Shown piece by piece: positions 21,001 to 55,966 of a DNA stretch of 64,000 bases. The notes under the pieces were generated by a model that saw only the letters and a list, made by a program, of their open reading frames with translations, had not been told where the DNA came from and made no database searches. The position numbers were made by a program, and so were the translations under genes. The stretch is from Candidatus Omnitrophota bacterium (GTDB taxonomy: Bacteria; Omnitrophota; Gorgyraeia; 1-14-0-20-64-10): NCBI GenBank assembly GCA_023248155.1, contig JAHFFE010000008.1:6515-70514 (forward strand), in the 5' to 3' direction. Numbering within the stretch: the first letter of the stretch is position 1; each line of letters starts with the position of its first letter.

Positions 21001-22710
21001 GAATTACCCGATCCAGAACTCCGGTATGACGGTCCTGAAGCGGTTCAAGACTATCTGGAGTCGTCTCTGAGATTGGGACGTTTGGCCGCGATGAGAGCTT
21101 ATGCCGAAGAGGCCAAAGTCAAAGATTTTGAAGCCTGGCTGGCACAGCAGCCGTCCATTGCCGATGCCGCGATTGATTACGCGCGGGAGGCTGCTAAGCG
21201 GGATATTTCAACCGATCGTCCTGTGGCCTGGACTCCCAACGCGCCGCTGCCAGTGGTAGTCGAACAGCCAGTACAGCCGGTGGTTACCCCGGCTGAGAAA
21301 GAAGTTTCCGATCCGAGCTGGCTGGTCAAAGAACTCAGCACGAATGGCGTGGGGGTTCTGACCGCTTCCGGAAAAGTGACGCCCGCCAGCGTTGAGCGGT
21401 TTATGGATCTTTCGCGTACGGTGATGGAAGAACGGTATGGCTGGCAGAACTCGCTCGAAAAAGAAGGTGCCCGTTATTGGTTAGATGAGAAGGGCGATGC
21501 GTTCCTGACCCGGCCTGACGGTAGTTCCTCTGTGGCGTGGGACTGCTTCGATGGCGCGGTGGCGATCGCCAAAGTGCTTGAGTCCGTGGGCTTGCAGCCG
21601 GAACTGCGCGTTGGCCAGACCAACGGCTTCACGCGCGACGTGTTCGTAGAAGTTGAGATTGACGGCCAGACGCTGCGCTTAAGCGCCGTTCCGTCGATGA
21701 AGGCCGTTGAGGTGGTTTCCAATGCGGCCGCGTCGCAGTGGCGCAATATCCAGCCGGTTCCATGGACGGTCGCCAATCAGATGGCGGCGGCGCGCGTTTC
21801 AGTAGTCGGTATGTCGCACATGCGCCCGATGGCGATTCAGGAGCAGAACGGCTCCTATCAACTAATTCTCGGCGGCGTGACGCGCAATAGTGCTGGAAAT
21901 TTGGATATTACCGTCGCTACGCAAAAAATCGGTCCAGATGGAACGGTTACTCCAGTGTCGTTGCACCGCGCCCGGAACATTTCAATCCGCGCGATGCAGG
22001 TTCAGGGCAATGGTTCTGAGTTGTCGGAAGCGCTCAAGAACGCTGGTACGCAGGACCTGCGCGGTGAACTGGAACAGGCGTTGAAGGGAACCGGCGCGAA
22101 CCTCTCGACGCAGGGGAATTCGGAAGGATTGAAAACGCTGGCCGACATGCTGCGTATTCCGGTTGCTCAGAAGCGGCCGGTCCGTTTGCCGGCCTCCGGC
22201 GAAACCGTTCCGCAGGATGCGATGGTTGCCGCGCTGCCGGGTTTTGTCCGCTGGCAGCAGTTTGCCCAGCAGATCCAGAATAACGATGTCGTGGTTCTTC
22301 CGGCGCAGCTGCTTGACCAGGTTGATTCGGCCACGCTCGACGCGCTCTCGGCGCTGCCGCCGGAACTCAAGTCGCGCGTGGTTTTGCTGGGGTCAGGGTG
22401 GCAGCAGCGGTTGGGTAATAAGACCGGCTTCCAATATGCGGCTGGTGCTGAAGAATTGGCAGCGCTGTTCGCCGGCCGGCCCGGCATCCGCGTTCAGGTG
22501 TTCGGCCTGAACCCGGTGGAAGATTCGTTCAAGGCGATCCGCGGCGCGCTCAGCGGCAAGGGAATCACGCTGGTTGTGGTCCGGTTGACCGGCTCTCTCG
22601 AGCAGTTCCTGCTGATGCTGGGCCGGGCACTGTTAACGCCGGAAGCGGTCACGCATACCGAAGCCCAGCGCCTTGCGCAGGAAGTCCGCTCGTTGGGCCG
22701 TCAGGCATAG
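1..22710 (+). CDS. Giant protein, 5'-partial (at least 7,569 aa inside the window, N-terminus lies upstream). Mostly alpha-helical/coiled-coil, with an embedded P-loop NTPase core and a C-terminal ~130 aa domain shared with the next five genes.
   Basis: The reading frame is open from base 1 to a TAG stop at 22708-22710, with no stop in 22.7 kb. Codon usage is uniform and the region is GC-rich. The track ORF 76..22710 begins at a GTG only because the window starts inside the gene. A Walker A motif (LSTGGGKSS, ~12651-12675) and a Walker B DEFD motif (13027-13038) sit within a helicase/SecA-like motif order. Long Ala/Leu/Glu/Gln-rich heptad-like stretches occur at ~2800-4400 and ~8800-10500. The C-terminal ~130 aa align with the C-termini of the following genes. 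Confidence 0.85.
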   Translation, partial: ANQNGQAIPLFADQYGFAVEGSVRQVAVRFDDPLSGKSQTENVYLQYNRDAKGDWQMVTYWATDKVRWDAGLKDNVTGQTVGGYRYNETPQERQQFGKTLVRVDGLVRRDEAGNLKILALGGLNTEKLPALSVLTNNGMRQFEDVRVRFYTDSTFHEVSAGSKVGGVGYEAKVDGKWVPLHQLGIVPEGIDTDRSTVLALESTKISIAVDAQGNFTLGKSTEGLKDLNGKPLTGSLVGHHSEGNFNLYVGKGGQVFYQGARAAEGSVGYQRVVQPFIAQIQSQGSYGTGYPVQYLPSENLEGYRDLIAQGLGLTTEQMTGLYPQGKISEAFSNPVISLADANIRVTVDGGTYGRQLPGEGNHLEMNTQNGSSFLLSGQSGLDLVLDRTEQSVGANRYTILSEYNGTEGATVKLETPLVIHEFSEQIQINPKAVAEIRNLFIRGMERFKGMAAPDFVSAMKDELQNSVSRLTASGVTQSVEPVYRVVSRFEQPAQDPLTSRMELTPLNGRMVTPAIQGDSLNPASSISLMGTNYAVGSKIAFEGRPEGLTLATLEEGRAWKSTVVTNTDFLKAVGLEKNQAVVVMQHYTSGNTRVPQVLRSISVVNPSTGNSELMSYRYDPKSGADVGSGQFSLPLNSTLESLQKQFGSVDVDGFDAGAGLEVVGMTDLPKMTAVALREQGQELTLGIQRQMAPQSDQMLRFTAGMEAVLPGLLGELDRQGVSLEAFLGATEYGPTYSGMLNPVLADAADASSNRELIGIAVLAPEVTPVGRPVLQQALVQQLWLGRNGQIAYDIVSGRDTAVELVQFFDPKTGQQGIVTNDRTGNSIFFAKGTEWIMPMKDTPTVDIAWKAEAFKVEGISLVLGQQTAWLFDTKNNRFAQLEINGQKTQPDSNGWARINEGDIYQLSRDDDPRRLERQKDGSLAPTIVSTNTLPPSMRADTLPVAEKITPEQQLEQLKASVKNVRDQLGEALGSESAPGKLQTQTREQETRLAHLYGQTQEPGVQQSRDQKPPVKLEDKQLALLVGTADEYVKQVDAFLKDGKALSEDKMKALLASGNTLLEKTKEYLGNKDFQEQFAVLQKASGQMDKQLTKLEQDWKDAKMSPEQKQYLGAQLRFMTEQQATQAILYSKAQPLVAYQEMYRAVTEIRQELGLRGEGFATPVALPDSLAEIGSRLEVQARVMDGLEERLQGLPIAKQTEILNGLTEQTKALNADLGKALDDKGIQENLGKLASDLETIVPDVLLLKGRVDSWVSLGRPASFTVDGVDLRVEAASIGSKLDSLRQAYPVTRLGELVANVQRNAGDLAVQWNEKNTLLVPMLQQQAAQSAFESKYKQVAAPLMAIYGKVYEAVDRVYDKQAEGYIRRIAESTAILLEKSAGMERAEATLRSIDQAKLGSDQPAFQSSQEKNLARTADALKPEIAVLKKEIQTEQAALHAIRVEQHAAWDRDAPQQVLYKIDENGEKVYLRKDMAATNDVAKRTNDTVNTRVLYSIPNEKTKSWLELNAGSLAVGSADGKIATRYVLQPAKIDPANENTVLAPERMLRMTDYDPSKDPQQRVHVEESLGEIRYDSNKNSKELPFVGSFKDPERAGRNIRLLSETKFLNPREAVRVERFSGESIYEQAAIQGMDKELQQQSFIDINKIDTNKNKFLVNARATYMRLAENVPGYADLRNRANIAQQETRLYSNITDNPYRGTVLASDAYGISRERITRADDFYEETKFVGPGATESYRIEKATGLADGATHVAKYVYTYYDGEKAVSNYIRGSETFIKAPDGIRRGSDVHPDQYVTPLNPKPVELAMIKAGDPKKGYTLDPYGTSAMKDFVAAPANIPFGGSEGRILAQVAEMPQLKFKSEASLKENGVEIYEARTKVEKAEQLKVRDTGFMQMDSRVYGESGDTTGNIQFVVRKDDFGNLHVDTKENYAFVKGVWVNARVLAVGPVATSIWNEKRYNPNHVQIEGGERFSPDQLNASYSRIEINKAGDAEERVYYGRTLLNSEEQKLNYPDKPDEQVIAGIYNKLDGSFTGNTRMIVPYFSDPKGFVPFQMLYGAFHVDQLGRWAAGPDGKVDTFMGNMTPNQFAWTTAVFREALIFEVGGLAMKGPTLGGGIGRGYQTVVGWSAGAASRRAIVGLGEQAFVQGGKALSEAGILVGRSAAAQVYTRAYSNAAARLLFKPVGQTVATLADDLAVATVSRISAQVSVHGAGYLSANIIGRTGMQIATPFLTRPAMSWQAFREGAGQFFSSGKNGWVSPENIKTLLIRTPLDIQFRMNPAFSLASNLGLLISDRMGTPMVNQYGLPTSNGFFSTHFAADRHGSENLFTAESWKNAVMLTPIMFASQPISRALGGLIGFNQLAQLKSAAHSSVIAQYSVLYMDMKVLLPAAEGVIVSGLETVGIPSKVEVFGFSFSPSGLIAQVVSFGIIAPQITPNAGKAASAEVLRTESADAAAGASRALTDIAGREARNQQAVPPATETLAGTGAVQETVARQVDMAEQTQTSQQTRTVAETETPELIRLSDTAREQVPDAEGTLNRLLVLPVTSGSSATGAELADVTGSLRAYSGEARAGAGDSTFRGALRQGVEHAMGMLQSWLTGRSEPGKAPTATEQLDLLTAVDNLAQAVEATGLGRKLGDKLGDLAGQAAGFKTPELNALAPSAAAPASIRALNLGQSLPQNLQNAGVASSRVAVVAGKLGEVVARVPDQIRRISGSSPETAAVITVAITRSVASLARFVPEGDVRSRLVQAPRAAAAEMAKITPRQETTPPTVKVAAAPETTPAQPQTASTSDAIQIRSVENGKAEEIRIKLDSDRSNVSSATDLSGRLTLTVDTKGNLTISAEGELPAELRNSRVTLTQDGKPVNSNGRELNGKVTLGSLLDKPIQVNTDKDSVKIRINSGKEGTFEETAQKAADKTAETARPRETEPSARPKESSFRDQVRAVFNEAGRDSDQQSFVTQQDVVHSTFDGVRSEFNQLIEQAAKAATPEARQALLEKAVQRLDQMITVAEEALGAIGRKGLNAAETGKLVNQLFEDVSKGYDLLADTALAAAEARGGNASGLVASMGQSFSRMADFAGSAARLLQQAGAKPSELITLIGKTAERLMGADGKSGSFGKLLAIYDAVVKDAKATAAQRTEAVVGISTAEASLGRYVERSLQTAKNAGIKVNAEALGNMFYESTNEYTSRIEQLDVNKFGELTANQAGQLFGNELAAMESARDAFAAVRSSGGKVNLGRDGKLFGRMATAVSRQITAVFAQTKAGSEQFFAAVEASSRLMEDTRSLEQARLLEKGAAGDLIRSQMKTLSTALDKLAGGSNEIVAAGQEAETLFVWFEALVGSDVWSGLDANQRAVILGFSIEAQASSQLAGVRSEEQHARAGAIFPQQATRGAGAFRSRLQNEVRNLFSDPNLSADSKLELANRVDRTEKATRFDRATLRAKNQARAQAADVFADQARDNAGTAAGTAAAVKWAIARRTPAADRLLESTGATRSDKSRGSPEDLASRAAQANTPESRRAVSEIWASLKQELRQRSDFTSERELDLDSRLSGRAPETPRESPQELIARTAPALNKAAQAKLQKAPVEPVEVVRIDKAGRNALPGLKELPSGKDRDTIIENRIQSMSDQKRLETLTKQTEIGTKDGTPVLALQVVEGDRGFLISLDSRLSTGGTVRQRVATELVRRAEVQILSKSQLETVFRQMHADNASGKTIELPGGKSLPNIAAVREVIDQVVEGPVRRVVEGDGLQALFKSGSEIDTLSKKIGEQLDQKLPVVEATIVLNDRPTDVVMTNELAREIVKKLSEIRKPFYAKEAESAVTTVLETVVIPEGATPQQRTAAIVSALTGKIIEPMKAAKPDATNGQDIVVTITADGTAHKAPRADFVKAMAGTIGAEVAERLAYEGKLDQLTSDQTKELVGKLSDTVRSVEAETLDGLRKGLFNDEQIILNDAADNAIRGAIVPVLASRAEQLAREELGQTDRINFHKPAEGKDSLTALKNTETRLLNETGTARGSREHAVILIDSLPRLFEQSQRNGLALSGKALSEDLSKEITASADFHGQLARDARTQLVNSSENHTAFGSNEQVSSQIDRGWNNISIDRTSLKQGQVDHLTSIVRLEAAGLVRDALEPFAVSGATQDQFNKAGLTPAFIERLGYDSDGLKLESGKTAYAPETVQTVRGKVDSEARVRVRAEQVRDLKGFPSIRPEQWAAIRNIAMGDKYSVEALSTGGGKSSFVSPVLAAFIYDTTGEKVVVVFSDAGLMKAGYNDAARVWGVGKYSDKPGLTTNGKSDGPKFDVYLHETGHIPERLDPELESANIIYTTLEGLKSASLAEKLGTSPNAFEPFRQANYLIDEFDTLKLDPDLQGTLPGSGITLAQFGHVQTQVETVVRYIRATYGESAVENFREGKGGNGLSNSIEQSLTYTETELSPELRIVANRGDIHEMSAIGLERTANGNYRYTPRHDQVHFSPEFKEGLVEYLREKSVSLELKFNQDTQFSDFVDSPEGQQWMAAADEVARAVTAIHGRDFATDATLADGTISSRSPTRLVPVHEASGGTQTRQHWSNPYQAAAYNEVLSGEFLKSSPLPAGEIQLDPTSTRVSTNDVLADIRAGHIAARGENGTGPQLRIHGYSGTGIQGGGGRLLGRLFGVTVPDVEARAENLGSLAADQFTVLRGPDAMQQALSQSARVTIDVTTVLDSKINETLWRSENQSSAHVIRDGEGNFWYFEKGSNQPRSIDYADARLLALNDNVRFFIHRAGSRGLDLPIPEGAGIRVLVSDSTGLDALEQALGRWRGEYNHQLWGADNYKPGIGQVQKNQVDLVMIDSRETGPNTISKGELENMAVQNQNRAVDPTALGQQIQTTFSTRAQWQLGKMLTIVQASPGSEAWAAPLRQKLNDLMEHNAAAANHQQTGTALQSGEHQLVEAVRNGLRGEVSAMAEVRSLEASGEYGPLPAEAKAILEETLSNRVADFETEGHLLTRNELGQIAAGKGSELTADTQAVLIRGGYAEKADATGVLRLTEKGQSSLTELDRATATVPIVSSLSEARTVSQAIRFVQSEVGREELPLLAGRSAPDSVRTLTLRDNLNGLLESVGLTEGERTNFLNSPELQRLQDGQGRFIGESGRNFVETSEQLVAAVRNDSDRGALSTALTSLGHSDWAAIVTNGTQPGNGLALAQTALGLSSSPLTDPQSGGVKFLVSVGYQLQLEQTPASVQLSPSDWARLQTSSNMGLELNSLLGTRTTVDPALMARAQSGQETIQQVLPIRQQLHQIEKELDSIQDSRIEEAVKTGRDNPVSVKRGDKNDPLPANLVLKEAELTRRRDQTQTQLTKAEKPLDKGLLTVADLVTTHAGGDVDRAASLAVRFNPALQSYSHSQLTQALRRLTQPVRDNGFGLQGRSISVYDLDNYLRDSREFLKTAAPSRGLLSEALTELDKAIDLEKIEGTRTKDKSKSEVTLPIIEAAAAATVARLSAGRVEKMAGENEDVPLLDGVPLTNERVTRLLMTAVNPTASDNDLSAAVTIGSVATDLSEQQVGSYQTDPSLLRARQRAALESAARRVAYRDVSNKAEQLVARFEAQDKSLTPADLKIIYTAFEALENKKDRGALVQIVRAQLSQNELSAGQIIQQHPAEVVSEYRSALLRDPLSLLPSISLVASVASQEKINNNSYASLAAGRRTLIDRLDSVNRLFNPDLQESAATGLVEERLGIVSLTAASNVSIEQSLLHLNRMVANGRQEFSDPAGIFVRLNLKLTQASSLRIDEARSAAARVTHLLEKGLRREDLVPQITAQAVDQLRAKVGLPPLNLNQVQRVVYDRYLPFVERELGGVANPAASQKQLSSYAVNELKSILTDMGNPVASNIAQQISDITILQLVQLSHNLNQQVFIPNNTAIAIHPEGITAGALSDVKDRNINGITVFDVLVDQPFENVMGSTPGAMHFENVGVAMPEKGFRVLDVVSMLRAGQVNIQAQKIARLLRESGDSASLQVANLVISWAQQIEAQVDRSRITIDGTARSLQKNQRIEESWHASDRASVGQLGDVASQGSQAIPATVAAILREDGRLIQVVAGSADPAAMAAARSQLTGDDNGSVFELSAKLERLRASSDINELAIEFTNTLIQWENDSGLYVKAFGWVLRMMDSKGVTLSGATADEAMAGFRRGMADIQNDTFYRYDERLERLDGDQQLKMRFIGRDTAQQRFFVQASAENRAAYVATQQALARSVDSYLTRAGLEEGGGEEPKPEEIAAAKAKEIDTAWKQLTAISKDVQAPIVISANIRQANGIVMPAEAVLIEQAMARRVDAAVQRLIERINGAAVIRRMNVQEAAMDAVERQVPVFLMNNGRPERVMGMDRSGLLVTMGVGKDQTLQQITADPALQEADFLVGVFQPIALGEPVTLKRGGVDEQVRFEFVSNGATASSWEMLDKDGITDVIRSLAREPGSFERFEASWKTQHETPGTIHAVARDSKGRIVASIVTYPDSAEVHPGDYAAAQQAGASYLVSQPALYIKYWAAADGDKKVSGAGDALRAALLKALKEGKVSSKDRKPYQLVTFHARAEQFGQEGTAAPSVFDILWKEKLQLSADSYDLITQKGYYQGSHGESVDAHYAIIKTDKIFSEQTPVPPIQKSGAEEAVIEESVINEFADGLLGRQLDAVITSQIDQLTAGSGQELRKLPEIRRLSVTDADMNSVMEALKDPRTIEDLNCACASAVNYARAMGQQVTAPDMGNIVHRFVGLMVRQALTDNGSSLTLYERLGMGERPSIPVPFELIQTVLATPGLIAAAPRGFVTTLYQTSAVPAGKTVTVMERTESVPVPSAIYSRYAREGFVLGNRNGPFVAYLEGRNIGGHAAVVSAMPDAVTISPVAPVSVRGFMVRGPAMFAIKDGVLYADSKQVTGLDQALATVQTSRWQKVAMAGIGGAPGTVKAVDEMATAVIEAANSNTNSSSPVEGLPPDNRVLSGSLSKAKKRLARQAVAKSRFETWLSKLARIATLGEELAKFQEGLNELNKLDDGELPDPELRYDGPEAVQDYLESSLRLGRLAAMRAYAEEAKVKDFEAWLAQQPSIADAAIDYAREAAKRDISTDRPVAWTPNAPLPVVVEQPVQPVVTPAEKEVSDPSWLVKELSTNGVGVLTASGKVTPASVERFMDLSRTVMEERYGWQNSLEKEGARYWLDEKGDAFLTRPDGSSSVAWDCFDGAVAIAKVLESVGLQPELRVGQTNGFTRDVFVEVEIDGQTLRLSAVPSMKAVEVVSNAAASQWRNIQPVPWTVANQMAAARVSVVGMSHMRPMAIQEQNGSYQLILGGVTRNSAGNLDITVATQKIGPDGTVTPVSLHRARNISIRAMQVQGNGSELSEALKNAGTQDLRGELEQALKGTGANLSTQGNSEGLKTLADMLRIPVAQKRPVRLPASGETVPQDAMVAALPGFVRWQQFAQQIQNNDVVVLPAQLLDQVDSATLDALSALPPELKSRVVLLGSGWQQRLGNKTGFQYAAGAEELAALFAGRPGIRVQVFGLNPVEDSFKAIRGALSGKGITLVVVRLTGSLEQFLLMLGRALLTPEAVTHTEAQRLAQEVRSLGRQA

Positions 22711-22791
22711 TCAGAAATAGCATAGAAGATTTTTACACAAAAACCGGTTCACGCATGGCATACTTAAAGTAGGTCAAGGGTAAAAACACCT

Positions 22792-22832
22792 TTCGCGGGG
22801 TCGCACCAGCTCTCCCCGCGGAAGTTTTTATT
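22792..22832 (+). terminator. Rho-independent terminator between the two giant genes.
   Basis: A 9-bp GC-rich stem (TTCGCGGGG...CCCCGCGGAA) with a 13-nt loop is followed by GTTTTTATT. It lies 82 nt after the stop of giant gene 1. Confidence 0.6.
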
Positions 22833-22898
22833 ACCCCTCTTTTTCAAGAGATAAGAACTTTTCGATAAAGCGGTTTAGTTGACCCAAAAGGGGGATTC

Positions 22899-25800
22899 AT
22901 GATCGTTCGCTTTAACCGGAAAACAGGGCAATCTTCCGAAGGAACTCCAGTTCCTGGCGAAGGCGTTTTACTTCCGGTCCAGCGCCCGCGGTTAAGACCG
23001 GTTCTGCGTTCGGTCGCGGCAGTCACGCTGGCGGCCTTCACGATCACTTCCATCGTTCCGTCCGTTTTCGCGCAAACCGTTCATTCGAAAGAAACACTGC
23101 GTCCGGTTCAAGAAGCGGAAGGCAATAATAAAGAAAAGGTTGGCGGCCTTGAAGAACGTCTGCGTGCTTCTGGTTCTGAACCGATTTCGGCTGATCCAGT
23201 ACTACTCACCCCGACTCCTTCAGTTTCAGCAGGCGGCCAAGGTGATGGACTCGCCACCACCACTAATTTCTGGGTTAACCGATCTGGAAGCCCTATTGCC
23301 GGGAAGGAAGAAGATTCCGCGGTCCGCGTTGATCGCCGCACTGCGCTGGCGGCAGGTTTATTGGGTACGGCAGCGGTAGCCACGGCGCTGACAGCGCCTG
23401 TTTCACTGCCGGCCCAGGATGTTACGCCACCTCAACCCAAGGTTGTTGCCGCTGCTCCGAAAGCTGCAGCGAAACCAGCCCCACGCCCTGTTCTTGTGGA
23501 ACAGATCACCAGTAATCTTGTCCAGAATGACAAGGGACAAATACAACTCGAAACCGTTTCTCGAGGGACACGGTCAGACCGGGTGATTGCTCCTCCTACG
23601 AAAGAGTCGCGCCATCCCATGATAGCTGCGGTCCAGGCCGTTAAAGCCACTTTGACCCGCGGTCAGGAGCTGGTCCGCTCGTTTCTCACGGGTCCTTCTG
23701 AAGTGATCCGCTGGTTCGCGGTCAAAAACCACGCGCGGTCGATTATTCCAAAAAATCATCCGAATGTCATTCTCTCTCTCAACGATTTCCGGCCGTTTAT
23801 TGATCAAGGCCCGGAGCGGGTTGCAGTGGTATTAAAAGCAATCGGTGCCGCGGCCAAAGCTCAGGGTTCCAAAGTATCGATCGCGCTGGATATTGGTGCT
23901 TTTGTCGATAACCGGGATTTCAGTGATTTGAAAACGCCGATCAGCGCTAACACCACCCGTGATTATCTGGTTCCATTTGTGACCGAAGCAAAACGGCAGG
24001 ACATCAAAGTGCTTCCTTACAGTTCCGACCGCGGCGTGATGCTGGATATCGGAAGTTACAAGCGCGAATTACAGGATGCCCTGCAAATGGGCTTTGACCG
24101 CGAAGCGATCGTGACCGACTGGGAATGGTGGGCGTCGCCTCCCGGTGTTGAGAATCTATGGGAAACACTAACGCTTAATAAACAGGATGACGCGAAGGCG
24201 CAACTGGCGCTTGAGTGGCTGAAAGCTCATCAGCAACTGCTTACCAGTGTGATTTCAGACAAAGAAATTCCGGTTACCGCCAAGCCCACTCAAATCTACG
24301 CATTGGTGAATCAGGATTTTGCGCAGGTGCTCATCAAGGCATTAGACGGTAAACCGTTGCCGTCACGGTTTCATTTGGTGGTGATGGCCTATAACACGCC
24401 TCGCGGCAAAGAGGCCGAGTTTGTTCAAGCAGCGCAGAAGTCTTCGGCCGACTTGACCGGCCAGAAAGCCAGCGGCTACGCGCTCAATTTTGAAAGGGAT
24501 GCCAGCCCGGATCAATCATTAAACGGTTTGGCTGTTGAAGGAAAAGTTGGTGAAACCGTTCAGCAGATTGCCGCGCAGGCCAAAACCGGCGGTGAACCGC
24601 TCTTTATGCATATTCCGTCGCATCGTGATCTGACCAGTTTAATGGAAACCGGCAAGATGGTGCCGGTGTTACCAGCCGATCAGGTTGAGCTGGCTCAAAC
24701 AACGGCTATTGCCTTGGGTAAGATGGTGCTCGGCGGCACACCCAAATCTCCCGAAATTATTCGCCGTTATTTACCAAGACCGGAAGATACCGCCACGGTG
24801 ACGAACCGAATTGCCGTGGAGCCGGTGACCCATGGTATTGGCTTTGGCACCACCGGTGTTGGTACTGTCGGGGCAGTCGGTCGCAATGTGGAAGCATGGA
24901 TGGGCAAGGGCGTCTGGTGGTTCCTGGATCCAGACACATTTATTTTGGGGCCGGAGGCCGGCTTGACCGTTTCTGCCATGAAAAAAATCGTCGGTACTCT
25001 GGTCAGGGGTGAATTGGAAACCGTCAGCATGGAATTGATCGTGACGCCGCTGGGTGAAGACGGCCGACCGTCGGGTCCGGCATTGCCGCCTATTTCAGTG
25101 ATGGGTGTTCCGGATCCGACCCGCGAACTCAAAGGGGCTCGTTACGACGCGCAATTGCGCGTTAAGCTGCGCCGGCCCGGCGAGCGCCTGGCGCAAAATC
25201 CTGAGAGCTGGCCGCTGATTAATGCCTCGATTGAGGCTGAAGTCGCTTTGGGCTATCCCGGCTACGGCCGCACGCCGCTGACCGTGTCGGAAGCGATCCA
25301 TATTCCTCCAGGGCGTGGCAATGAAACCGCTGAGGTGACGATTCCTCTGGGTGAAATTACTCCGACCATCAGCTTTTTTATTTTGCGCAGCCGCGATAGC
25401 CAGGAAAAAATCACCGGTTGGTATGGCCCCGTAAACCCGATGTATATGTCACAGTTCACCGATTATCTGCTCGACCAGAAATACAAAACGAAATGGGCTC
25501 ATCTGGAGACCGTCTGCGCCGATCCCAATACCAGTGCTCAGCTGTTGGCTGAAGCGACCGAAGAGATGAATCGGATGGGCGGGCATGTGACGGCGCTGCA
25601 GCTGGCGGTCGATCACCGGGGTGATCTGATGGTGCCGGTTTCAGTTGAAGAATACAAAGATGCCGCCTCCATGCGCGCACAATTTCAATCGCTGCGGGAG
25701 CATGGCGTAACCCATATTTCCGTGCGGGTTCCTGAGATCGAACAGAATGCCGATAAATATCTGGTTCAATACGCCGAAAAAGATATTTGGGGTGTCGATT

Positions 25801-28800
25801 ATAATGCGGCCCGGGACATCTTGGGAAGACAGGAACAGCAATTTTTGGAATTAATCCGTATTGCTCATGAAGCCGGGTTGAATGTCGGTTTGCAGCTTGA
25901 TGAAGCCGAGATTGACCGCCTCACCGATCCAAATCAGTCGGTTCGCGCAAAGGAGCGGTTGGAAAAGACCGGCTTGAAAGATCAATCGCACGGATTGGAA
26001 ATCATCCGGCTCATCGTCAAGGCCAACGAAGAGTTCCATTTCCAGCTTGATTTTTTTAACTTGAATCTTAAGAAGGGGTCCGGCGAAAGCCGTGTTCGTG
26101 CGGAGATACAAGCGGCCCGGGAACGGCGCGGCTCTCTGCAGTCCGATATGCAAAAGCTGATGGATATGCTCGATACATTGCTGGTTGAAACCGGAGACCG
26201 TGGTGGCCGTCCCACCGAATGGAACCAATATGCCACCCGTGTTTCAGTCAACAGCGTAACGCCTGATACCGCCCGTGAAATTTTGGAGACAAATCATACG
26301 GGTCTGGTTCAACGAGCCCAGCACCGTTATCCCCAGGCCTTGTTCCTGCAGGGAGGTTCTCTAAACGAAATCATTACCACGCTGAATCAGCGATTTCCGT
26401 CGCTGGTCAATTCTCAGGGTCAGGTCGATCCCCAATTACTGGAGGAGCTGATTCAAAGAATCAGGGTGCCTTCAACCACTGCTTTCCGCGCGGTCTCTGT
26501 TCCGGAAAATCGCATTGCTGAGGTACAACAGTGGGCTTCTACGCTGACCGACGAACAGATTCGCCAGTCTATCCAGAAGAAGGAAGATCGTGTCCGGTTT
26601 TTGCTTGCGGCCAGGGCCTGGGAAATTGGCATGGCTCAGGAACCGGTACTGGCGCGGTATCAAAATCCGATTGATCTGGCCTTTTTGGCAGCCCATGAAA
26701 TTCAGATGAACCGGTTGTTGACCGTCGGAGATACCCATCCGAAAGTAGTGATGCGGTCTTTGCCGACTCAGCAGATTACCGCCAGCGGCCAAGCGGTCAT
26801 TGAAGTGGAAATCAAGAACGAAGGCAATTTGCCGGCTCAATATATGACGATTCTCCATTTAATGGGTGAAACTCCTTCCGGGCGCCCTGCATGGCCGTTG
26901 GATGAGCCCCGTTTGGAGCGGTTTACGAAGGAAGTTATTTTAAAACCGGGCGAATCCCAGCGCGTACGGTTTGTCGTTGATGGAAATATCTTGCGCCAGG
27001 AAGGGCATGTCAACTTCCGCGTGCTGGCGCGCGATGTGAACACGCTCTTGCACAAGCCGGGCCAGGGCCTTGATATGGAAGAAGATGAAGAAGCGTTCGC
27101 CCGCGCCGAAGGAACTTTATATGTCACTCTGCCGCAGCGGTTGAAAGCGATCCCGGACCAAGCCCAGCGCGATGAAGCGATACTTGAAAATTCTTTCCAT
27201 GGGCTTCGACGGAGATTTGAGCGCGCGGAGGCACTGCGCCGCGAGCGGACCGGAGAATCATTTAATGATGCTGCCTATGCCCAGGGATACGGGGAGCGTT
27301 ATATGGAGTATATGGCCGTTTTTGCTCCGTATTACACAATGGGGATCAGAAAGGAAGGGACGGGATCCGGAACAATTCTTCGTTTGACATTCCAGCGCAC
27401 GGCCCAAACGCTTCAGGAACATTTGGAAGATGTGCGATCGGAGCAGCGGCAGCAATTGGAAACAATCGCTTTGCTTCCCGATCAGTCAGAACTTGCTACG
27501 GCCCGATGGCTGCGCAAAGGGCTCGAATATGGCATGAAAGCCGGTTTGGTGGCGTTGGCGATTGCGGCATTCAGAAATGTTCGCAGTTCCGCGCGTCGCG
27601 GGTATGAGGGTGCTGCTTTGGAGCAGTCGTTAAGTACAGGGGGTCTCGGGGATGGAACTCCCGTAGGCCGTTTCAGCCAATTTTTGGACATGAACACCGA
27701 ATGGTCCCATCGCGTTGAAGGAATGGGCGCACGCTGGACTCAGGATAGGGCTGGAAATCATCCGGAACAGGGGAAGGTGGCTCGCGCGATGCGCGCGACC
27801 GGCCGGTTTGTGATCGGCCTTCGCGATGATATTCAGGATCAAGCCATGCCGATCGTATCTCGTCAGCAAAGCCGTTTGGAGTGGATTCAGAAAATAGCTC
27901 CTAAGGTGGTTACCGGTGCTTTAGTCGTCATCGGTTCATTGGCGGCGTTGGGAGCCATCACGCTTCCCGCGGCCGGTATCGCGCTGGCTGTTCTTGTGGC
28001 CGCGGTTGTTCTGCTGGCGGTTCCGGTGATTGGACCCGTTCTTCAGCGGCTTATCTCGGTACTCTTTTTCCTTCCGCTTGATTTGGCCGCATGGGCTCCA
28101 GCTAATGGAGCGCTTCTCATACTGGGCCCGATTATTTTCTTCGCGATGGCTGCCATTGGCTTGTCCTTGATCGGCACCTTGTTGGGTGTCGCTGTAACCG
28201 TATTCTCCTGGCAGAGTATTGCAGTGGTTGCGTTAATATGGGCCGCGTTATGGCTCTACGATGGCGTTGGCCGAAGTCCTTACAGCGCGATCAGCTTTAC
28301 CTGGAGGATTGTGGGTGCTTTGGGAATCGGCGCCGTCGCGGCCGTCGTTGTTTTTGCGCTGACTTATATAATCTCGAACGCTTTGTTGTTCTGGTTTTTA
28401 GTCGGCGTTGTTTTCTTTTGGGCGGTTCGGGCTACCCATATTTTTACTTCCAGTCCGGCTCCGTTAATGGCCTATGCCGAATGGGTCTCTTCTTATCGGT
28501 TCCTGGTTCGGTGGGCAATTACCGGCCTGGTTATTTATGCCGGTGTTATGCTGGCGGCCGCCGCTTCGACGGTCATTATGCCGATATTACTAGGCGCGGT
28601 TCCGGTAACGGGTATTGCCGCTTTAGCAACTTCCGGTTTGGGTGTCATCAGCCTGTTGGTGATCGGAACGGTTTTACTGACCTATCTTCTGGGGTCGCAT
28701 TATCAACTTTATGGAACAGTTCCGTTCTTACGCAACCATCCCATTTTATTGTGGACGGCTCGTGTCGCGACAGCCGCGGCGCTGGCGGCAGCGATACCGT

Positions 28801-35396: not shown

Positions 35397-35564
35397 AAAG
35401 AATTTTTCCTCAAAAAATTTTCCATCCGGTTTTTCTCGCCAGTTGTTTGCTTTCACGCTATAATAAATAAACAAGAACCTGACCCTCATCTCGTCGGCCA
35501 GGAGTACAATCGGCTGCCGGGGTGGGGGAATTTCTTCCGGCGCTTTTAAAACAGATTGCGATTG

Positions 35565-39932: not shown

Positions 39933-40085
39933 AGTCAGATAATTTTTTAATGATATTTTTGAGGCAAAAGCCATCGGTCTATGGCATACTTACACTAGAG
40001 CGATTGAATAAAAAGTTTCGTGGCGGAAGAACGGGTTTCGCCGCGAGATTTTTATTTAGCTCCCTTTTTTCAAAGATCAAAATAG

Positions 40086-44315: not shown

Positions 44316-44325
44316 ACGCGCTAAA

Positions 44326-46401: not shown

Positions 46402-46416
46402 TGTGGTGATAATCCT

Positions 46417-49400
46417 ATGAAAAAACAATCAGTTTTTTATCCTCGAAAAGTAATCGCTTTTTTTATTTTTTTGGTATTTCTTTCAACCAGCGTCGGAGTC
46501 AACCCATCGTCCAAAAATTTCCCGGATGTTTCGCCTGACGCGCTGCGAGCCGTTAGCGGCGCGGAGTCGGCGGCTCAGCCGGGACTTGAAGAGTCTCTGA
46601 AAGAATCCGCCGGCCTATCTCGCAGCGGATGGTCGCTTAATTGGCTGGCCGGTATTACATTTGCGTTAACGGCAGCGTTGGATTGGGGCGAACCGGTGGC
46701 TGCCCAACAGGCGCAGCCGTCCCCGTTCGTAGCGACCCTCGATAATTTTCCGTCCGGCCCGGAATACAGTCGTTCCTCTGAAACCTTGAACCGTTATTTG
46801 AAAACCCTGGTGCCGGAACTGCCAGGGCCGGTCATTCTGACGCCGGGCGCCACGGTCCGTATCATCGCTATTCATGAGACTAAAGACCAAACAGGAGAAA
46901 TCGACGGCGCCTATGTGACGCTGACGCCTTCGAAGGAAACGATTGTGGTGCGCGCCGGTGACAACCGCTGGCTGGTTCCCGCCGGTGTTTCGTTAAAAGT
47001 CCATATCGACCGCAGGAAAAAAGAAACGCGCGTTTACCGTGAATCGGAAGTCACACGGCTGGCGGTTGAATTATCTGACATTGCCGGGCTTTCTGATCTG
47101 ATGGACCGTTTTGATGTGGAGGGGCCGGTCGTTGGCGCAACGCGGTTTAAATCCAGCGGAAAACTGGTGATGGGAGGAATTATTTATCGCGACGGGGGCG
47201 TTCGCCATTGGAATATTGTGCCGATTGATCCGGGATCTTCCGTTACGGTGATCGCGCCCGATGGCACGGAATCGACGGTGCCGGCCTTAAAACCGTTGCG
47301 TTTGATTATTCAAGACGGACAAGCGCGCATTGATCCGAAACAGCAATACAGTTCGGTGCGAAAGCCGGCATTTTTGCCGCCGGCGGTAACAGGCCGCTTC
47401 GATGCGGTGCCGGTGGTCGAAAACCCGAGCCCGATCGTCCGATCGAGCCGTGCTGCTCAGCCGGTTCCGGCTGCTTCGGTCCGCCGTTTCATTCCGCCGA
47501 AATTGGATCCGGAACTTCCGAAAATTCCGGAGCTGCAACTGGTAGCGGCGATTCCATCCAGTGTGACGGCCCGGCCGGCCGCAGATTCTCAATTCACGGA
47601 CTCTCGCAAAAAAGAGCCGGCTCCAATGCCGATGCCGGCCGATCTGCCGCGGACGGCTCCGGTCATAGCAGCAGACCGCGTCCGTGTCCGGCAAAATCCG
47701 CGCAATCCGGATCTGTCTCCGAATGTTGGACGGAACGATTCGGGTCCCGGCCCGTCCTCTCCGGATATTGCCGTGAAAGATAGAACACCGGTTCCTCCAG
47801 CAGAGGCATCGCCGGTTGCGTTGGCTCCAATTGCAGCGGGGGAGGCTCCCGTTCGCCGTGTTGCACCGGTTCCTCCTGTGGATCTCCCGGTTCCGCCACC
47901 CTCCGTCGTAGCCGGTGGTAATTCTCTGGTCCGTTTGGATCGTTTGCCGCGCGAGCCGGCGGTTTCACCGGTGCCCGCTCGCTCGATTCCAGAAAGTGAG
48001 TTATTTTCGGAGAGTCTTAATTTCGCGGATCGATCGCCGGTGATTGACGCTCCTCAGCCACATCCGAAATTGGCCGAACCGCCGGTAGGTGTCGTTAATA
48101 CCACACGTCGCCGAGCCCCGGCGTCAAAGCCGGCGGAAGAGTTAATCTCTCCGGTGCCATTGTCAGAGCCACTTTCAGCGGAATCGACTGTTGAATTACG
48201 CAAGATTGAAGGGGATATCCTTAACAGCATGGCGCGATTACACCAGTGGGCCGTCGATGCTCTCAACAATCATGCGGCCCGCGTGGCCGAACAGCGGCAA
48301 AAGAAAGCAGGCACCCCGGCGGATAGAAACATTGCCGATTTCAACACGCTGAAAGCCGATGTCGATGCGGCAATGGGACGTGTTATTCTTGTCCTGCGCG
48401 ATTATGTCAGGGCCGATGGCCCGGCGCGCGCCGGTTTTTGGAACCGGTATCAACAGGCAGTCCAGAATTGGTTTGACGCGCGCGAGCGGCAGGTTGGCGC
48501 TTATCTGGAACTGGCCGATGATTTATTACAGCGCGATCGTCAGTCGGCTTCCAACCAAGGCAATACCAGCACGCGTGACCTAGAGCGGTCGCAGGCTGCC
48601 AGCGAAATTGCCGGATTCACGCTTCTGGAATTAACCGCCTTCCGTAATCTGTACGACGACCTCATTGAGCTGGGTGTTCCGGTTCCGTTCCTGAACGCGG
48701 CTATGCCCGATGAAATTGGTTACACGCCCTATTCCGTTCCGGTCATTCCCAGTTTGCAAAAGCCGGCAGCCGCGGCCGACCGTGCCCGTTTTTTAGAGAA
48801 GGCCTTCAATCAAATCGCCGAAATTTTACGGCTGAACAGTCAAAAACTGGGTGTTGATATCCGATTGCGTCTATCGGAATACCAGCGGTTTAAAAACAAT
48901 TTCTATTCCACTCCGCGGGGAGGCACGTTACCTCAAGGCACGAGCAGGGAAGAGATGAACTATGCCAGTTTTCTCAGGGATGAGGCGATTTTTCAGCGGG
49001 CCCAACAGCAGCGCCTTTCGGCTCAAATCAATTTTGTTGAAGCATTACAAGTTTTGTCGCAGACGCAGGGGCAGCCGTTTTTGCCGGCTGACAATGAACA
49101 GGTGCGTGCGGTTGTGGCCAACTATGCCGTTGAACATGGATACCCTCCTGACATTGGTCAGGAGGTGGTTATTTCGGTGGTTGGTTTAAGAACGGTGCGC
49201 GACACGATCTTTATCTCCGCCCAGGAACGGCTTTCGCGGGCGATCTCGGATGAAATGGCGGCGCGGGTTGTTCTGTCTCAAAAATTAATCGTCTACCTCC
49301 AGGATGACTTCAAACGGATGGTTCATGCCAACCTACGTGTTCCCGGCGCCTACCCTGCCTGGGACATTTTCGTTGCCGAATATAAACTCCGGCAGGCTCG

Positions 49401-51615
49401 GCAACAACTCGCGATCACTCAACTTGCGCAGGAAAACGATACGGTCAGAGCTCAGCTTGGTTTACCGCGCAGTAATATTGAGCTGGCTGTGCCGCCAGCA
49501 GTGCGCAGTATTCTGGAAACCAATAGACAGTCGCTTCTGCCGGGTTCTTCCATCACGGAATCAACGGATAGTTTTAAAGAATGGATTAAAGGGGCTGATG
49601 CCAGCGTTTTATCGCCGTTGGATACCGCAGAGAACCTTGCGGCCACTTTTCTGGGATTGGTAAATCCTCCGTCAGAGCCCAAGGCGGATGATTTGGTTCG
49701 CCGGCAGGCCGAAAACGAGCGGAAGATGCTCGAGGCCAAAATCAAGATGCTTGAAAACGAAAACTGGCTGGCCAAGGCGTTGGCCTCTATCCGTGAATCA
49801 ACCGAAGCAACCCATCCCGGATCTGTAACGAAGCCGGAATTGGAAGATGCCCGTAACTGGCGCGCGCAAATTGAACTGAGAAACGCGGAAATAGCCGTAA
49901 TTCGTGCCGATATCGTCCGGCTAGAACCTGGGTTGGATCCGGTCCGGTATGCCGAGCTAAGAGGGGAGTACAATCGGCTCGTTTTAGAGCGGTTGCGTGT
50001 TGCCAGCCGAGTTAATAGAGAGCGGATGGATGTTCTTGATGGCCGCTTGAAGATTGAGGGAATTCTGGAATTGAATGCCGAAGCCTGGAGGAGGTTTGAC
50101 GCCGCTTACGCGGCGGGTACTCCGCAACCTCTTAACCAGATTTTAGGACAACTCAGGAATGCGGGAGCTGTCCGCCGCACTGATTCCATTGACAGAGCGA
50201 TTCAAAGCTGGGGACAGACAAACGATTATGGCAAGCTGTTAGAACAAGCGCTCGCGCGTAATGAAGAACTGGTTCAACGGGGCGCTTCGCTCGATGCTCA
50301 CTCGTCTCGGCCGGCCTTGCCGACGCTTGAAACGGTTCTTTTCGATAATAGTAGTAAGTCGCAAACCTATCCGGATAACCGTTCCGAGGTTTTCACGGTC
50401 ACTTTGGGCAAAGGGGGAGTTCCTCAGCCGCTGCAGATTGCCGGCCCTTTCCGTATGGACGCGCTGGTTATTCCGTCCTATGTTTCTCCGCGTGTCGAGC
50501 CCTATCAGAATGCGCATGATGATCTTCGTCCCCGGGACTGGCAAGCTCCGCGCGATTCACTCGAGAAAGTCGATCTTCTTGACTCGACTGCGCCCACCGC
50601 ATCCGGCCGGTTCGGCGCCGGGTCTTTCTTCCGTTACCGGCAAACGCCCGCTCTTTCTTCCGAAAACACGACCGGCCTGTCGACATTCCTGAGGCCGGGT
50701 GTATTACGCGTCGATCCACGGGTGGCCTCTATGCCGGTTCCGGGCGTTCGCGCTTCATGGGATCCTAATAAGAAACAATGGACTTTGCCTGACAAGGCTG
50801 AAGACCGCCAGGTCGTTTATTTTTATCCGGTGCGTAAATTAGATATTGTGTTTGAAAATGGGAAATGGGTTCCCCGGGTAAATTTATTTGGAATTGTTCC
50901 TCAGCCTGTTTCGTGGAGAGAAGCGGGTCAACTGGCAGAAACACCCCAACGGACTTTAGGTCCGAACCGGAGCGTTTCGAGAGTGGGAGAATATGTAACC
51001 GATCCATTGACGGGGGATCCCTATGTTTCTTTTAATGTGGAGGGTGGTTTTTCCAGATACCGTATTAATGTGACCTCGTATCAAACCCCTGAAGGAAAAG
51101 TTGAGCAGGAGTTCAGTTTTATTTCCGAGACTATTGGCGATACCGATGCGCCGCGTTCTGCCATAATTGGAACCGCGGCCGCCGCATCCGGACAGGAAGA
51201 ATCGATTGTACTTCCGGCCGGCGCGACCAACGGCAATATAATTATTTTCACGCCAGAGACGGTCGAGGCTGGGGTTGAACTGATGCTGAATCGGTTTCGC
51301 TTGGCGGCCGGAGAGAAAATTCCGGTGGCCGTGATCGTGAGCGACGCCGTTCAGCATTCCCATGTTTTGGATTTACTGGAAGGCCAACCTGTTGAATTAC
51401 TGTTTCCAATCATGGACCTTTCCGTGACTGGAGATAGCCTGAAAGAGGCGATTGATGCGCTTGCGGCAGATGCCGAAAGTTACTCGCTAAAACCGCTGGT
51501 CATCGACACGATGGCCGCGTTCCGCCAGCTGGGCACATTCCTCGGTATTCCGGAACTGGACCAGCGTTTGCTGAACGAATGGCTGGATCAGCAGGGAGTT
51601 GTTTCCCAGGCATAA
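46417..51615 (+). CDS. Large secreted/anchored coiled-coil protein, paralog C (1,732 aa). Signal peptide, TM anchor, long Pro-rich low-complexity stalk, conserved N-module, beta-rich C-domain, shared C-terminal domain.
   Basis: ATG at 46417 gives MKKQSVFYPRKVIAFFIFLVFLSTSVGV (signal). An anchor WSLNWLAGITFALTAALDW follows. A Pro-rich stretch is encoded at ~47400-48160. The N-module WNRYQQAVQNWFDARERQV...LGVPVPF and the C-domain VDPRVASMPVPGVRASWDP...YFYPVRKLDIVFENGKWVPRVNL are paralogous to the 35565 gene. The last ~120 aa match the 44326 gene. Confidence 0.85.
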   Translation: MKKQSVFYPRKVIAFFIFLVFLSTSVGVNPSSKNFPDVSPDALRAVSGAESAAQPGLEESLKESAGLSRSGWSLNWLAGITFALTAALDWGEPVAAQQAQPSPFVATLDNFPSGPEYSRSSETLNRYLKTLVPELPGPVILTPGATVRIIAIHETKDQTGEIDGAYVTLTPSKETIVVRAGDNRWLVPAGVSLKVHIDRRKKETRVYRESEVTRLAVELSDIAGLSDLMDRFDVEGPVVGATRFKSSGKLVMGGIIYRDGGVRHWNIVPIDPGSSVTVIAPDGTESTVPALKPLRLIIQDGQARIDPKQQYSSVRKPAFLPPAVTGRFDAVPVVENPSPIVRSSRAAQPVPAASVRRFIPPKLDPELPKIPELQLVAAIPSSVTARPAADSQFTDSRKKEPAPMPMPADLPRTAPVIAADRVRVRQNPRNPDLSPNVGRNDSGPGPSSPDIAVKDRTPVPPAEASPVALAPIAAGEAPVRRVAPVPPVDLPVPPPSVVAGGNSLVRLDRLPREPAVSPVPARSIPESELFSESLNFADRSPVIDAPQPHPKLAEPPVGVVNTTRRRAPASKPAEELISPVPLSEPLSAESTVELRKIEGDILNSMARLHQWAVDALNNHAARVAEQRQKKAGTPADRNIADFNTLKADVDAAMGRVILVLRDYVRADGPARAGFWNRYQQAVQNWFDARERQVGAYLELADDLLQRDRQSASNQGNTSTRDLERSQAASEIAGFTLLELTAFRNLYDDLIELGVPVPFLNAAMPDEIGYTPYSVPVIPSLQKPAAAADRARFLEKAFNQIAEILRLNSQKLGVDIRLRLSEYQRFKNNFYSTPRGGTLPQGTSREEMNYASFLRDEAIFQRAQQQRLSAQINFVEALQVLSQTQGQPFLPADNEQVRAVVANYAVEHGYPPDIGQEVVISVVGLRTVRDTIFISAQERLSRAISDEMAARVVLSQKLIVYLQDDFKRMVHANLRVPGAYPAWDIFVAEYKLRQARQQLAITQLAQENDTVRAQLGLPRSNIELAVPPAVRSILETNRQSLLPGSSITESTDSFKEWIKGADASVLSPLDTAENLAATFLGLVNPPSEPKADDLVRRQAENERKMLEAKIKMLENENWLAKALASIRESTEATHPGSVTKPELEDARNWRAQIELRNAEIAVIRADIVRLEPGLDPVRYAELRGEYNRLVLERLRVASRVNRERMDVLDGRLKIEGILELNAEAWRRFDAAYAAGTPQPLNQILGQLRNAGAVRRTDSIDRAIQSWGQTNDYGKLLEQALARNEELVQRGASLDAHSSRPALPTLETVLFDNSSKSQTYPDNRSEVFTVTLGKGGVPQPLQIAGPFRMDALVIPSYVSPRVEPYQNAHDDLRPRDWQAPRDSLEKVDLLDSTAPTASGRFGAGSFFRYRQTPALSSENTTGLSTFLRPGVLRVDPRVASMPVPGVRASWDPNKKQWTLPDKAEDRQVVYFYPVRKLDIVFENGKWVPRVNLFGIVPQPVSWREAGQLAETPQRTLGPNRSVSRVGEYVTDPLTGDPYVSFNVEGGFSRYRINVTSYQTPEGKVEQEFSFISETIGDTDAPRSAIIGTAAAASGQEESIVLPAGATNGNIIIFTPETVEAGVELMLNRFRLAAGEKIPVAVIVSDAVQHSHVLDLLEGQPVELLFPIMDLSVTGDSLKEAIDALAADAESYSLKPLVIDTMAAFRQLGTFLGIPELDQRLLNEWLDQQGVVSQA

Positions 51616-55923: not shown

Positions 55924-55966
55924 GGGTTATGGCATATTTAGAGTGGGTCAAGAGGAGGGAACTAAA

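Follow-up and report, generated by a model that had tools for sequence, protein, structure and literature searches.

The 64,000-nucleotide stretch of DNA analysed here (the window; positions 6,515 to 70,514 of contig JAHFFE010000008.1 in assembly GCA_023248155.1 of a Candidatus Omnitrophota bacterium) carries on its + strand, to which all window coordinates below refer, an uninterrupted array of genes with intergenic gaps of -4 to 188 nucleotides. The array begins with six large genes, designated A to F, the C-terminal and N-terminal regions of which are the subject of this analysis, and continues with genes G to K, a gene for a protein with TPR and two PDZ domains, a gene for a HAMP protein, and others. 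Gene A (76 to 22710) encodes at least 7544 amino acids, its 5' end lying beyond the window on a contig that measures 77.5 kb at NCBI; it is followed by B (22899 to 35396; 4165 amino acids), C (35556 to 39932; 1458 amino acids), D (40086 to 44315; 1409 amino acids), E (44326 to 46401) and F (46417 to 51615; 1732 amino acids). The six gene ends given in a preliminary description of this DNA are all correct. The start of E is uncertain: the ENA annotation places it at the ATG at 44326, another gene caller places it at the methionine of a GMEE motif (P0005), and the longest open reading frame begins with TTG at 44251, overlapping the end of D by 65 nucleotides.

Proteins A to F amount to 17,024 amino acids with nine cysteines, three of them in A, and none of the six has a match in Pfam, in NCBIfam or among PDB sequences; their C-terminal domains searched in isolation have no Pfam match even at E≤10. 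A is a giant soluble protein, in which no transmembrane segment and no Pfam or NCBIfam match was found across at least 7544 amino acids; B is polytopic; C, D and F have paralogous bodies; and the body of E is unique. Internal repeats were looked for in A and B and none were found, and scanning the whole window for Rfam families and for tandem repeats gave no match. The preliminary description had called the bodies of these proteins otherwise unrelated, which is wrong given the paralogy of C, D and F: BLASTP aligns D with F at E 1.7e-52 and C with D at E 2.7e-21, and the identity of C and F reaches 49%.

Each of the six proteins ends in a region of approximately 130 to 175 amino acids of alternating strands and helices, located behind a linker rich in proline, serine, threonine and valine. 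Smith-Waterman alignment of the last 170 residues, with z scores computed against shuffled sequences, found only two significant pairs among the six: B and C (z 16.9; by BLASTP, 31% identity over 121 amino acids, E 4e-7) and E and F (z 73; by BLASTP, 68% identity over 142 amino acids). The scores of C with F (z 3.1) and A with C (z 2.8) are marginal, and those of the remaining pairs are near zero. With the addition of homologues from elsewhere, described below, the B/C group has nine members (pairwise z 8 to 100) and the E/F group has three, and the C-terminal domain of A finds a counterpart in that of the homologue P0007 (z 5.1; by BLASTP, 40% identity over 35 amino acids, E 0.002) in an alignment that spans strand 1, helix 1 and strand 2 (...PPEL[KS][SR]RVV...). 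Comparison of profiles by hhalign gave P=0.004 to 0.026 for B/C versus A over about 135 colinear columns and P=0.046 for B/C versus E/F over 126 colinear columns. When a hidden Markov model (HMM) built from the nine B/C sequences was run against 200 chunks of all locus proteins, the last 200 amino acids of A were the top non-member (E=0.0059, versus 0.78 for the next), and the same region was again the top non-member among 2417 six-frame pieces (E=0.088). D is not significantly similar to any other type by hhalign, Smith-Waterman alignment or HMM, and its alternating pattern of strands and helices is visible by eye. The preliminary description had stated that all six C-termini can be aligned; with only two significant pairs and three or four types, this was an overstatement: relatedness is clear for B with C and for E with F, weak for A, and not demonstrable for D. 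The class of C-terminal module is real, and by sequence its members fall into three or four types: A, B/C, D and E/F.

The A-type module of about 165 amino acids occupies positions 22213 to 22707; its first strand is DVVVLPAQ (22285 to 22308), a GAEE motif is found at 22444 to 22455, and it ends in ...GRQA. The C-terminal module of B (34776 to 35393) begins with a junction motif GLEE (34776 to 34787) and a linker rich in threonine, valine and serine, after which the folded B/C-type domain (34962 to 35393) contains GVEE at 35355 to 35366 and ends in ...LTSA. The B/C-type domain of C has 147 amino acids (39489 to 39929) and ends in ...GKYV. The D-type region (43788 to 44312) is located behind a proline-rich linker, with its pattern discernible from EQIFIES (43902 to 43922) and with GLEE (44268 to 44279) 15 residues from the terminus, and ends in ...FQFMA. 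The E/F-type domains comprise 140 amino acids in E (45979 to 46398), starting at GLEE and ending in ...ASAA, and 141 amino acids in F (51190 to 51612), starting at GQEE and ending in ...VSQA. Upstream of its C-terminal domain, E has an extra strand-helix-strand unit (45745 to 45880; RAVIILTPTDFQAVV...KIIVFD) resembling the beginning of the domain itself (RVIILTPDTAVVG), which may be a partial duplication of the cassette.

The AlphaFold2 model of the B/C-type domain (predicted local distance difference test score, pLDDT, 82.8; predicted template modelling score 0.80) is, with good confidence, a three-layer alpha/beta domain of about 145 amino acids in which a helix starting from GLEE is followed by strand β1, a short helix, a β hairpin ending in strand β2, a helix, strand β3, a helix, strand β4 and two helices. 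The C-terminal domain within the model of E is also alpha/beta (pLDDT 59 to 89), the remainder of the full-length E model being unusable (pLDDT 45). Counted from GLEE, β1 lies at +16 to +20 in the E/F type and +16 to +21 in the B/C type, β2 at +45 to +49 in both, the helix after β2 at +52 to +64 and +54 to +65, and β3 at +68 to +75 and +70 to +75, respectively. By the matching of these distances, the domains of B, C, E and F very probably have one fold in common; the domain of A probably has it as well. The fold of the B/C type is generic, belonging to the Rossmann/flavodoxin class of alpha/beta domains with no close relative in the PDB, and the alignments of the C-terminal domains contain a conserved S/T-x-[ED]-T after strand 1.

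Relatives of these proteins are few. An exhaustive HMMER search of 1.84 billion cluster representatives with a profile of C, D and F returned seven matches, namely F, D, E and four proteins from other assemblies, and the same architecture is found altogether in about six other assemblies, one of them labelled Omnitrophota. P0003 is an orthologue of C with a B/C-type domain; P0004 is a fragment with an E/F-type domain at its end; P0006 (1657 amino acids) has a B/C-type domain and occupies the position of F in a syntenic locus, followed by genes for G/H/I-like proteins with carbohydrate-binding modules (CBMs); P0007 (1297 amino acids; 'hypothetical protein [Candidatus Omnitrophica bacterium]') is encoded by a solitary gene in GCA_023818695.1 and has an A-type domain. 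Orthologues of B, C and D are present at two further loci (L008 and L010), and one more fragment is P0012. L007, a contig in GTDB that bears the label Planctomycetia, carries the C-terminal part of a protein whose cassette is of the B/C type, followed by a coiled-coil protein of 1080 amino acids with a fifth type of cassette behind 'VASGLEEPT'. A word-indexed protein search, which is insensitive here, found no match to the C-terminal domain of C, including C itself, and returned F alone for full-length F; a profile of six C-terminal domains retrieved two fragments; a scan of GTDB found one locus; and two scans of JGI metagenomes and two of viral sequences found no further members. Given so few relatives in such large collections, the family, although real, is very scarce among public sequences. 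As a separate observation, the gene after P0007 (L003, 13939 to 15084) encodes a lipoprotein-like protein of 381 amino acids for which no Pfam match is recorded and which contains a PHP-like motif, HVHSxxSDG.

Bodies of the C/D/F family are attached to different C-terminal domains: B/C-type in C, P0003 and P0006, E/F-type in F, D-type in D and A-type in P0007. With types swapped in this way both inside the locus and between genomes, the domains behave as autonomous cassettes that are exchangeable among different bodies, as would be expected of a shared module for targeting or docking. To this extent, the shared module of the preliminary description is upheld, and a common homology of all six is not demonstrable. 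The 49% identity of C and F extends from residue 1066 to 1317 of C (38751 to 39506) and from residue 1342 to 1597 of F (50440 to 51207), stopping a few residues beyond the junction GLEE motif, whereas over residues 1201 to 1300 the identity of C to its orthologues (P0003 and the one at L010) is just 24%. This indicates that C and F have exchanged sequence, and the exchanged segment ends at the GLEE junction. The C-terminal domains of E and F have 96 of 141 residues identical, 36 of the 96 being encoded by different codons and 16 consecutive codons being identical, a mixture suggestive of old paralogues that have undergone some gene conversion.

The motif GLEE occurs 11 times in A to F compared to an expected 0.56, and the looser motif G[LMQAV]EE occurs 20 times compared to an expected 2.0, with a maximum of eight in 2000 shuffles. 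Fifteen of these 20 are located in the 1870 terminal residues and five in the 15,154 residues of the bodies, and a control set of 8836 residues from ordinary proteins of the window and of L003 contains no GLEE and two loose matches. The N-terminal copies are 50 to 83 residues from the N-terminus in B to F; at the junction of linker and C-terminal domain, copies lie 206 (B), 147 (C), 140 (E) and 141 (F) residues before the terminus; and B, C and D each have a copy close to the C-terminus, 13 to 25 residues before it. The C-terminal domain of C has four copies (147, 114, 56 and 25 residues from the C-terminus), all of which are kept in the orthologue P0003 and three in the orthologue at L010, where AGIEE takes the place of the fourth; in the B/C-type domain at L007, all four are perfect (AGLEEL, TGLEER, VGLEEY and AGLEEG). 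The internal copies, at residues 1160, 6195 and 6592 of A and 2581 and 3128 of B, are in low-complexity linkers. GLEE is retained in relatives of only 23 to 32% identity, and its codons vary between copies (CTT and GCC included), which implies that the constraint is on the protein. The idea of a DNA-level element or alternative start codon was dropped for this variation of codons, yet one gene caller does start E at the methionine of GMEE. K, one of the secreted proteins encoded downstream, bears a loose version of the motif, VGAEES, directly behind its signal peptide, and has no C-terminal domain of the kind described here.

The leaders of B to F share an order of elements: a helix resembling a signal peptide, a motif [ATSC]LRx[VLIQ], GLEE, and a second hydrophobic segment that is usually preceded by RR or KR. 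In B (22899 to 23414), these are TLRPV (23094 to 23108), GLEE (23145 to 23156) and the RR-preceded segment DRRTALAAGLL... (23331 to 23414); in C (35556 to 36179), ALRVQ (35658 to 35672), GAEE (35724 to 35735) and a KR-preceded segment resembling a transmembrane helix (36108 to 36179); in D (40086 to 40397), TLRAL (40194 to 40208), GLEE (40233 to 40244) and an RRR-preceded segment (40329 to 40397); in E (44326 to 44598), CLRSL (44431 to 44445), GMEE (44476 to 44487) and DRRTVLKAGAL... (44536 to 44598); and in F (46417 to 46686), ALRAV (46540 to 46554), GLEE (46582 to 46593) and a second hydrophobic segment (46618 to 46686). The same beginning of the leader is found in P0003, P0006, P0007, the 1080-amino-acid protein at L007 and the orthologues of D (L008 and L010). 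In an alignment of five proteins, L, R and G-L-E-E are the invariant columns, and the distance from the LR motif to GLEE is 8 to 17 residues in B to F and 0 to 25 in the relatives. The basic residues before the second segment are seen in DRRTALAAG in B, DRRTVLKAG in E, QRRRWPL in D and TRRDFLKG in P0007. A twin-arginine translocation (Tat) signal peptide has S/T-R-R-x-F-L-K, an h-region of moderate hydrophobicity and AxA, all at the N-terminus; the Tat model TIGR01409 scores residues 58 to 83 of P0007 at 16.0 bits with a cut-off of 16.7, and the RR-preceded segments of P0007, B and E come 60 to 145 residues into the protein, after a first hydrophobic helix. The secreted neighbours G to J have plain signal peptides in which the leader motifs are not present.

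At the opposite end, the last residue is alanine (11) or valine (4) in 15 of 15 family members, whereas just 2 of the 26 proteins used as controls end in either (Fisher p=2e-9, or 3e-7 with orthologues collapsed), and serine or threonine is frequent at position -2. The PDZ domains of C-terminal processing peptidases of the Prc/Ctp type read small hydrophobic C-termini. In the same array, 6 kb downstream of the six genes, the TPR-PDZ-PDZ protein (57608 to 58597; PDZ_6, PDZ_2 and TPR in Pfam, with a signal or anchor sequence) has PDZ domains that are closest in NCBIfam to those of C-terminal processing peptidases. Recognition of tails by PDZ domains in Prc/Tsp, Ctp and DegS thus resembles the situation here with respect to the small hydrophobic C-terminus, often with serine or threonine at -2, and the Ctp-like PDZ protein of the array, but those proteins are proteases, whereas no protease domain was found by Pfam in the PDZ protein here, which is a candidate partner by inference.

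The preliminary description had compared the C-terminal modules to those of the type IX secretion system (T9SS) and to the C-terminal signals of the type I secretion system (T1SS), and neither comparison holds up in any feature that was tested. The C-terminal domains of T9SS substrates (Por_Secre_tail) are likewise folded domains at the ends of differing large secreted proteins, divergent and of more than one type, but they are β-sandwiches of 70 to 100 amino acids in Bacteroidota, compared to alpha/beta domains of 130 to 150 amino acids here in an Omnitrophota-like lineage; the T9SS models (TIGR04183/PF18962, type A, and TIGR04131, type B) have no match on A to F, the isolated C-terminal domains having been searched up to E≤10, and no PorU, PorV or SprA gene is present within the 64-kb window. 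The giant T1SS adhesins of the LapA/RTX type have an N-terminal retention module that is cut by LapG, and resemble the proteins here in very large size, few cysteines, a short motif in the N-terminal region and a C-terminal signal. T1SS substrates, however, have RTX repeats (GGxGxD) ahead of the C-terminal signal and no N-terminal signal peptide, whereas B to F begin with signal-like helices and A to F have no HemolysinCabind or other Pfam match; nor is any transporter encoded in the 12 kb downstream, where there is no gene for an ATP-binding cassette (ABC) protein, membrane fusion protein (MFP) or outer-membrane factor (TolC), the upstream side being beyond the window.

The dockerins and cohesins of cellulosomes and the docking domains of polyketide synthases and nonribosomal peptide synthetases are also small, terminal, linker-borne modules, exchangeable among catalytic bodies and with several types of specificity, and the genes that neighbour this locus encode carbohydrate-binding modules. 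Dockerins, however, consist of duplicated calcium-binding F-hand segments (PF00404), whereas the cassettes here have no Pfam match and a different fold, and no cohesin-like receptor was identified. The signals for sortase, exosortase and rhombosortase (LPXTG, PEP-CTERM and GlyGly-CTERM) similarly combine a short motif in the C-terminal region with an N-terminal signal peptide, and are similarly lineage-restricted and found by comparative genomics, but in those signals the motif, a transmembrane helix and a basic tail are at the extreme end, whereas GLEE is also N-terminal and in internal linkers. The last 25 residues of the proteins here contain no hydrophobic segment except for strand-like stretches inside the cassettes of A and D, and the tails end in alanine or valine, not in basic residues. 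Published giant proteins of Omnitrophota ('Archaeovorins' and the Dockerin type) are rich in Pfam domains, including C39 and S8 peptidases, SecA-like domains and glycan-acting enzymes (10.1101/2023.11.21.568195); lineage, very large genes and carbohydrate-binding neighbours are points of similarity, but the six proteins here have zero Pfam domains. The shared terminal signature is not described in two papers on giant proteins of Omnitrophota (10.1101/2023.11.21.568195, 10.64898/2026.06.07.730766), and text searches of the literature for the motif and the accession numbers found nothing. Tags or cassettes on co-encoded large envelope proteins are a known kind of system, and, as every testable defining feature of the T9SS, dockerin, sortase and LapA types is lacking, the sequence families here are classed as undescribed.

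Conserved termini on diverse bodies, kept in relatives of 23 to 32% identity, favour a common function in handling or assembly over chance, and the idea of a common handling pathway is strengthened by the sharing of GLEE, the leader and the terminal alanine or valine. The reading tentatively adopted, although with considerable reserve, is that the C-terminal domains are exchangeable docking or anchoring cassettes, with the GLEE peptides and the free alanine or valine terminus as recognition elements. The cassettes would fold independently and would either gather the differing bodies into a single assembly associated with the envelope or deliver them to a single shared handling machine; the features recognized would be the acidic GLEE peptides of leaders, linkers and tails, the free small hydrophobic C-terminus, and the cassette itself; and a plausible receptor for the tails would be the TPR-PDZ-PDZ protein with its PDZ domains resembling those of tail-specific proteases. 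A further proposal, which is doubtful, is that leader, GLEE junctions and alanine- or valine-terminated cassettes constitute a new sorting and assembly pathway of an Omnitrophota-like lineage, in which an enzyme or receptor that reads GLEE and the C-terminus would build a surface apparatus of several megadaltons. Several observations weigh against docking by cassettes. Homology between the types of C-terminal domain is at or below the limit of detection, and there is none for D. The PDZ gene is not seen beside the gene of the solitary homologue P0007. Three GxEE copies of the B/C-type domain are in helix-to-strand loops of the predicted fold, and so some copies may be structural instead of recognition elements. 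Topology, which was read from hydropathy and approximate insertion energies, is ambiguous: the second hydrophobic segments of C and D are of transmembrane grade (approximate insertion energy -2.1 to 0.4 in the C lineage), and P0007 has a hydrophobic segment rich in glycine and alanine followed by RSRH directly before its C-terminal domain, which would place that domain in the cytoplasm.

If the leader and cassette were instead export or attachment signals for a dedicated machine, with GLEE as a site of cutting or transfer, the logic would be that of T9SS domains or of sortase and exosortase signals. Such cleavable sorting is rather unlikely, although it would account for the presence of GLEE in flexible linkers rich in proline, serine, threonine and glycine at module boundaries, its retention between flanking sequences that are down to about 20% identity, the conservation of the extreme C-terminus, the occurrence of the same termini on very different bodies, and the nine cysteines in 17,024 amino acids, as in many substrates exported unfolded. 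Four divergent types of cassette in one locus fit a single receptor poorly, however; GxEE is also found inside the folded B/C domain; P0007 has a probable transmembrane segment between body and cassette; and the genes that follow the locus within the window include none for a transporter, a sortase-like enzyme or a protease. The contrary view, that there is no common function, would attribute the similarity of B with C and E with F to duplication, gene conversion and recombination within the locus, the other C-termini to unrelated generic alpha/beta domains, and GLEE to a lineage-specific linker idiom or to microhomology that marks recombination junctions. The two significant pairs, the generic fold, the 16 identical consecutive codons of E and F, and the exchange between paralogues evident in C, which is closer to F over residues 1066 to 1317 than to its own orthologues over residues 1201 to 1300, are as expected from this view. 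It is nevertheless unlikely: the 36 identical residues encoded differently in E and F exclude a recent copy throughout, the codons of GLEE vary, and the persistence of GLEE, the LR motif and the terminal alanine or valine at 23 to 32% identity in other assemblies requires purifying selection on the protein.

Proteolytic processing of giant proteins of Omnitrophota has been proposed (10.1101/2023.11.21.568195), and GLEE might accordingly mark the sites at which giant precursors are cut, with the cassette as a prodomain or intramolecular chaperone. The internal copies in low-complexity linkers of A and B, and a SAGQEE site that recurs about as far from the terminus in an orthologue of B, are compatible with such maturation, but when B is aligned with its orthologue by MAFFT the internal sites do not share columns, five motifs in 15,154 residues are too few to dice a protein of 7,500 amino acids, and no peptidase domain was found in the six proteins or nearby, all of which makes polyprotein maturation improbable. 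It is very improbable that the cassette is a cytoplasmic Rossmann-type regulatory domain that binds a ligand or nucleotide on membrane-anchored giants. Many giant proteins of Omnitrophota are predicted to be mostly cytoplasmic (10.64898/2026.06.07.730766), the class of the fold and the conserved S/T-x-[ED]-T after strand 1 would suit such a domain, and the hydrophobic segment and RSRH of P0007 would place it on the appropriate side of the membrane; against this, the cassettes lack a glycine-rich or P-loop motif and match no nucleotide-binding family, the linkers are of extracellular style (rich in proline, threonine and serine), signal-like N-termini are present, and the partners in the operon are secreted proteins with carbohydrate-binding modules.

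Giant proteins are the hallmark of Omnitrophota, and most of their sequence cannot be annotated. The combination of leader, GLEE, cassette and terminal alanine or valine is a compact, searchable signature that links six such proteins and recurs in related assemblies, offering motifs to mutate or to use as bait and a route to the machinery through phylogenetic co-occurrence. If the cassettes do serve in sorting or docking, they would be an addition to the terminal-tag pathways represented by sortase, exosortase, T9SS and cohesin-dockerin, and would explain how a structure exceeding 17,000 residues is assembled at the surface of these cells.

Other features of the locus concern the bodies of the six proteins and the genes downstream. 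In the central part of B, a protein of 4165 amino acids that is otherwise soluble, residues 1693 to 2949 (27975 to 31745) contain at least 12 hydrophobic segments, which form three clusters. Coiled-coil models of membrane fusion proteins match weakly and independently at residues 236 to 295 of D (40791 to 40970; RND_mfp, E 0.039) and at the equivalent region of P0007 (residues 225 to 275; MdtN, E 0.035); the bodies of C, D and F may contain an MFP-like hairpin. A resemblance of the body of E to K and to the middle of G that was noticed by eye was dropped as not significant (z 2.7 and 0.9). Genes G to K (51669 to 57606) encode five consecutive secreted proteins, G to J with domains resembling CBM30, CBM9 and CBM11, and K and the middle of G have in common an unannotated domain of about 280 amino acids (26% identity, E 1.7e-21). 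Further downstream (59180 to 59722), a secreted protein of 180 amino acids without a Pfam match is built from six copies of a D-x-[ND]-x-DG-x-x-D repeat that resembles a calcium-binding loop, with an aromatic strand after every copy.

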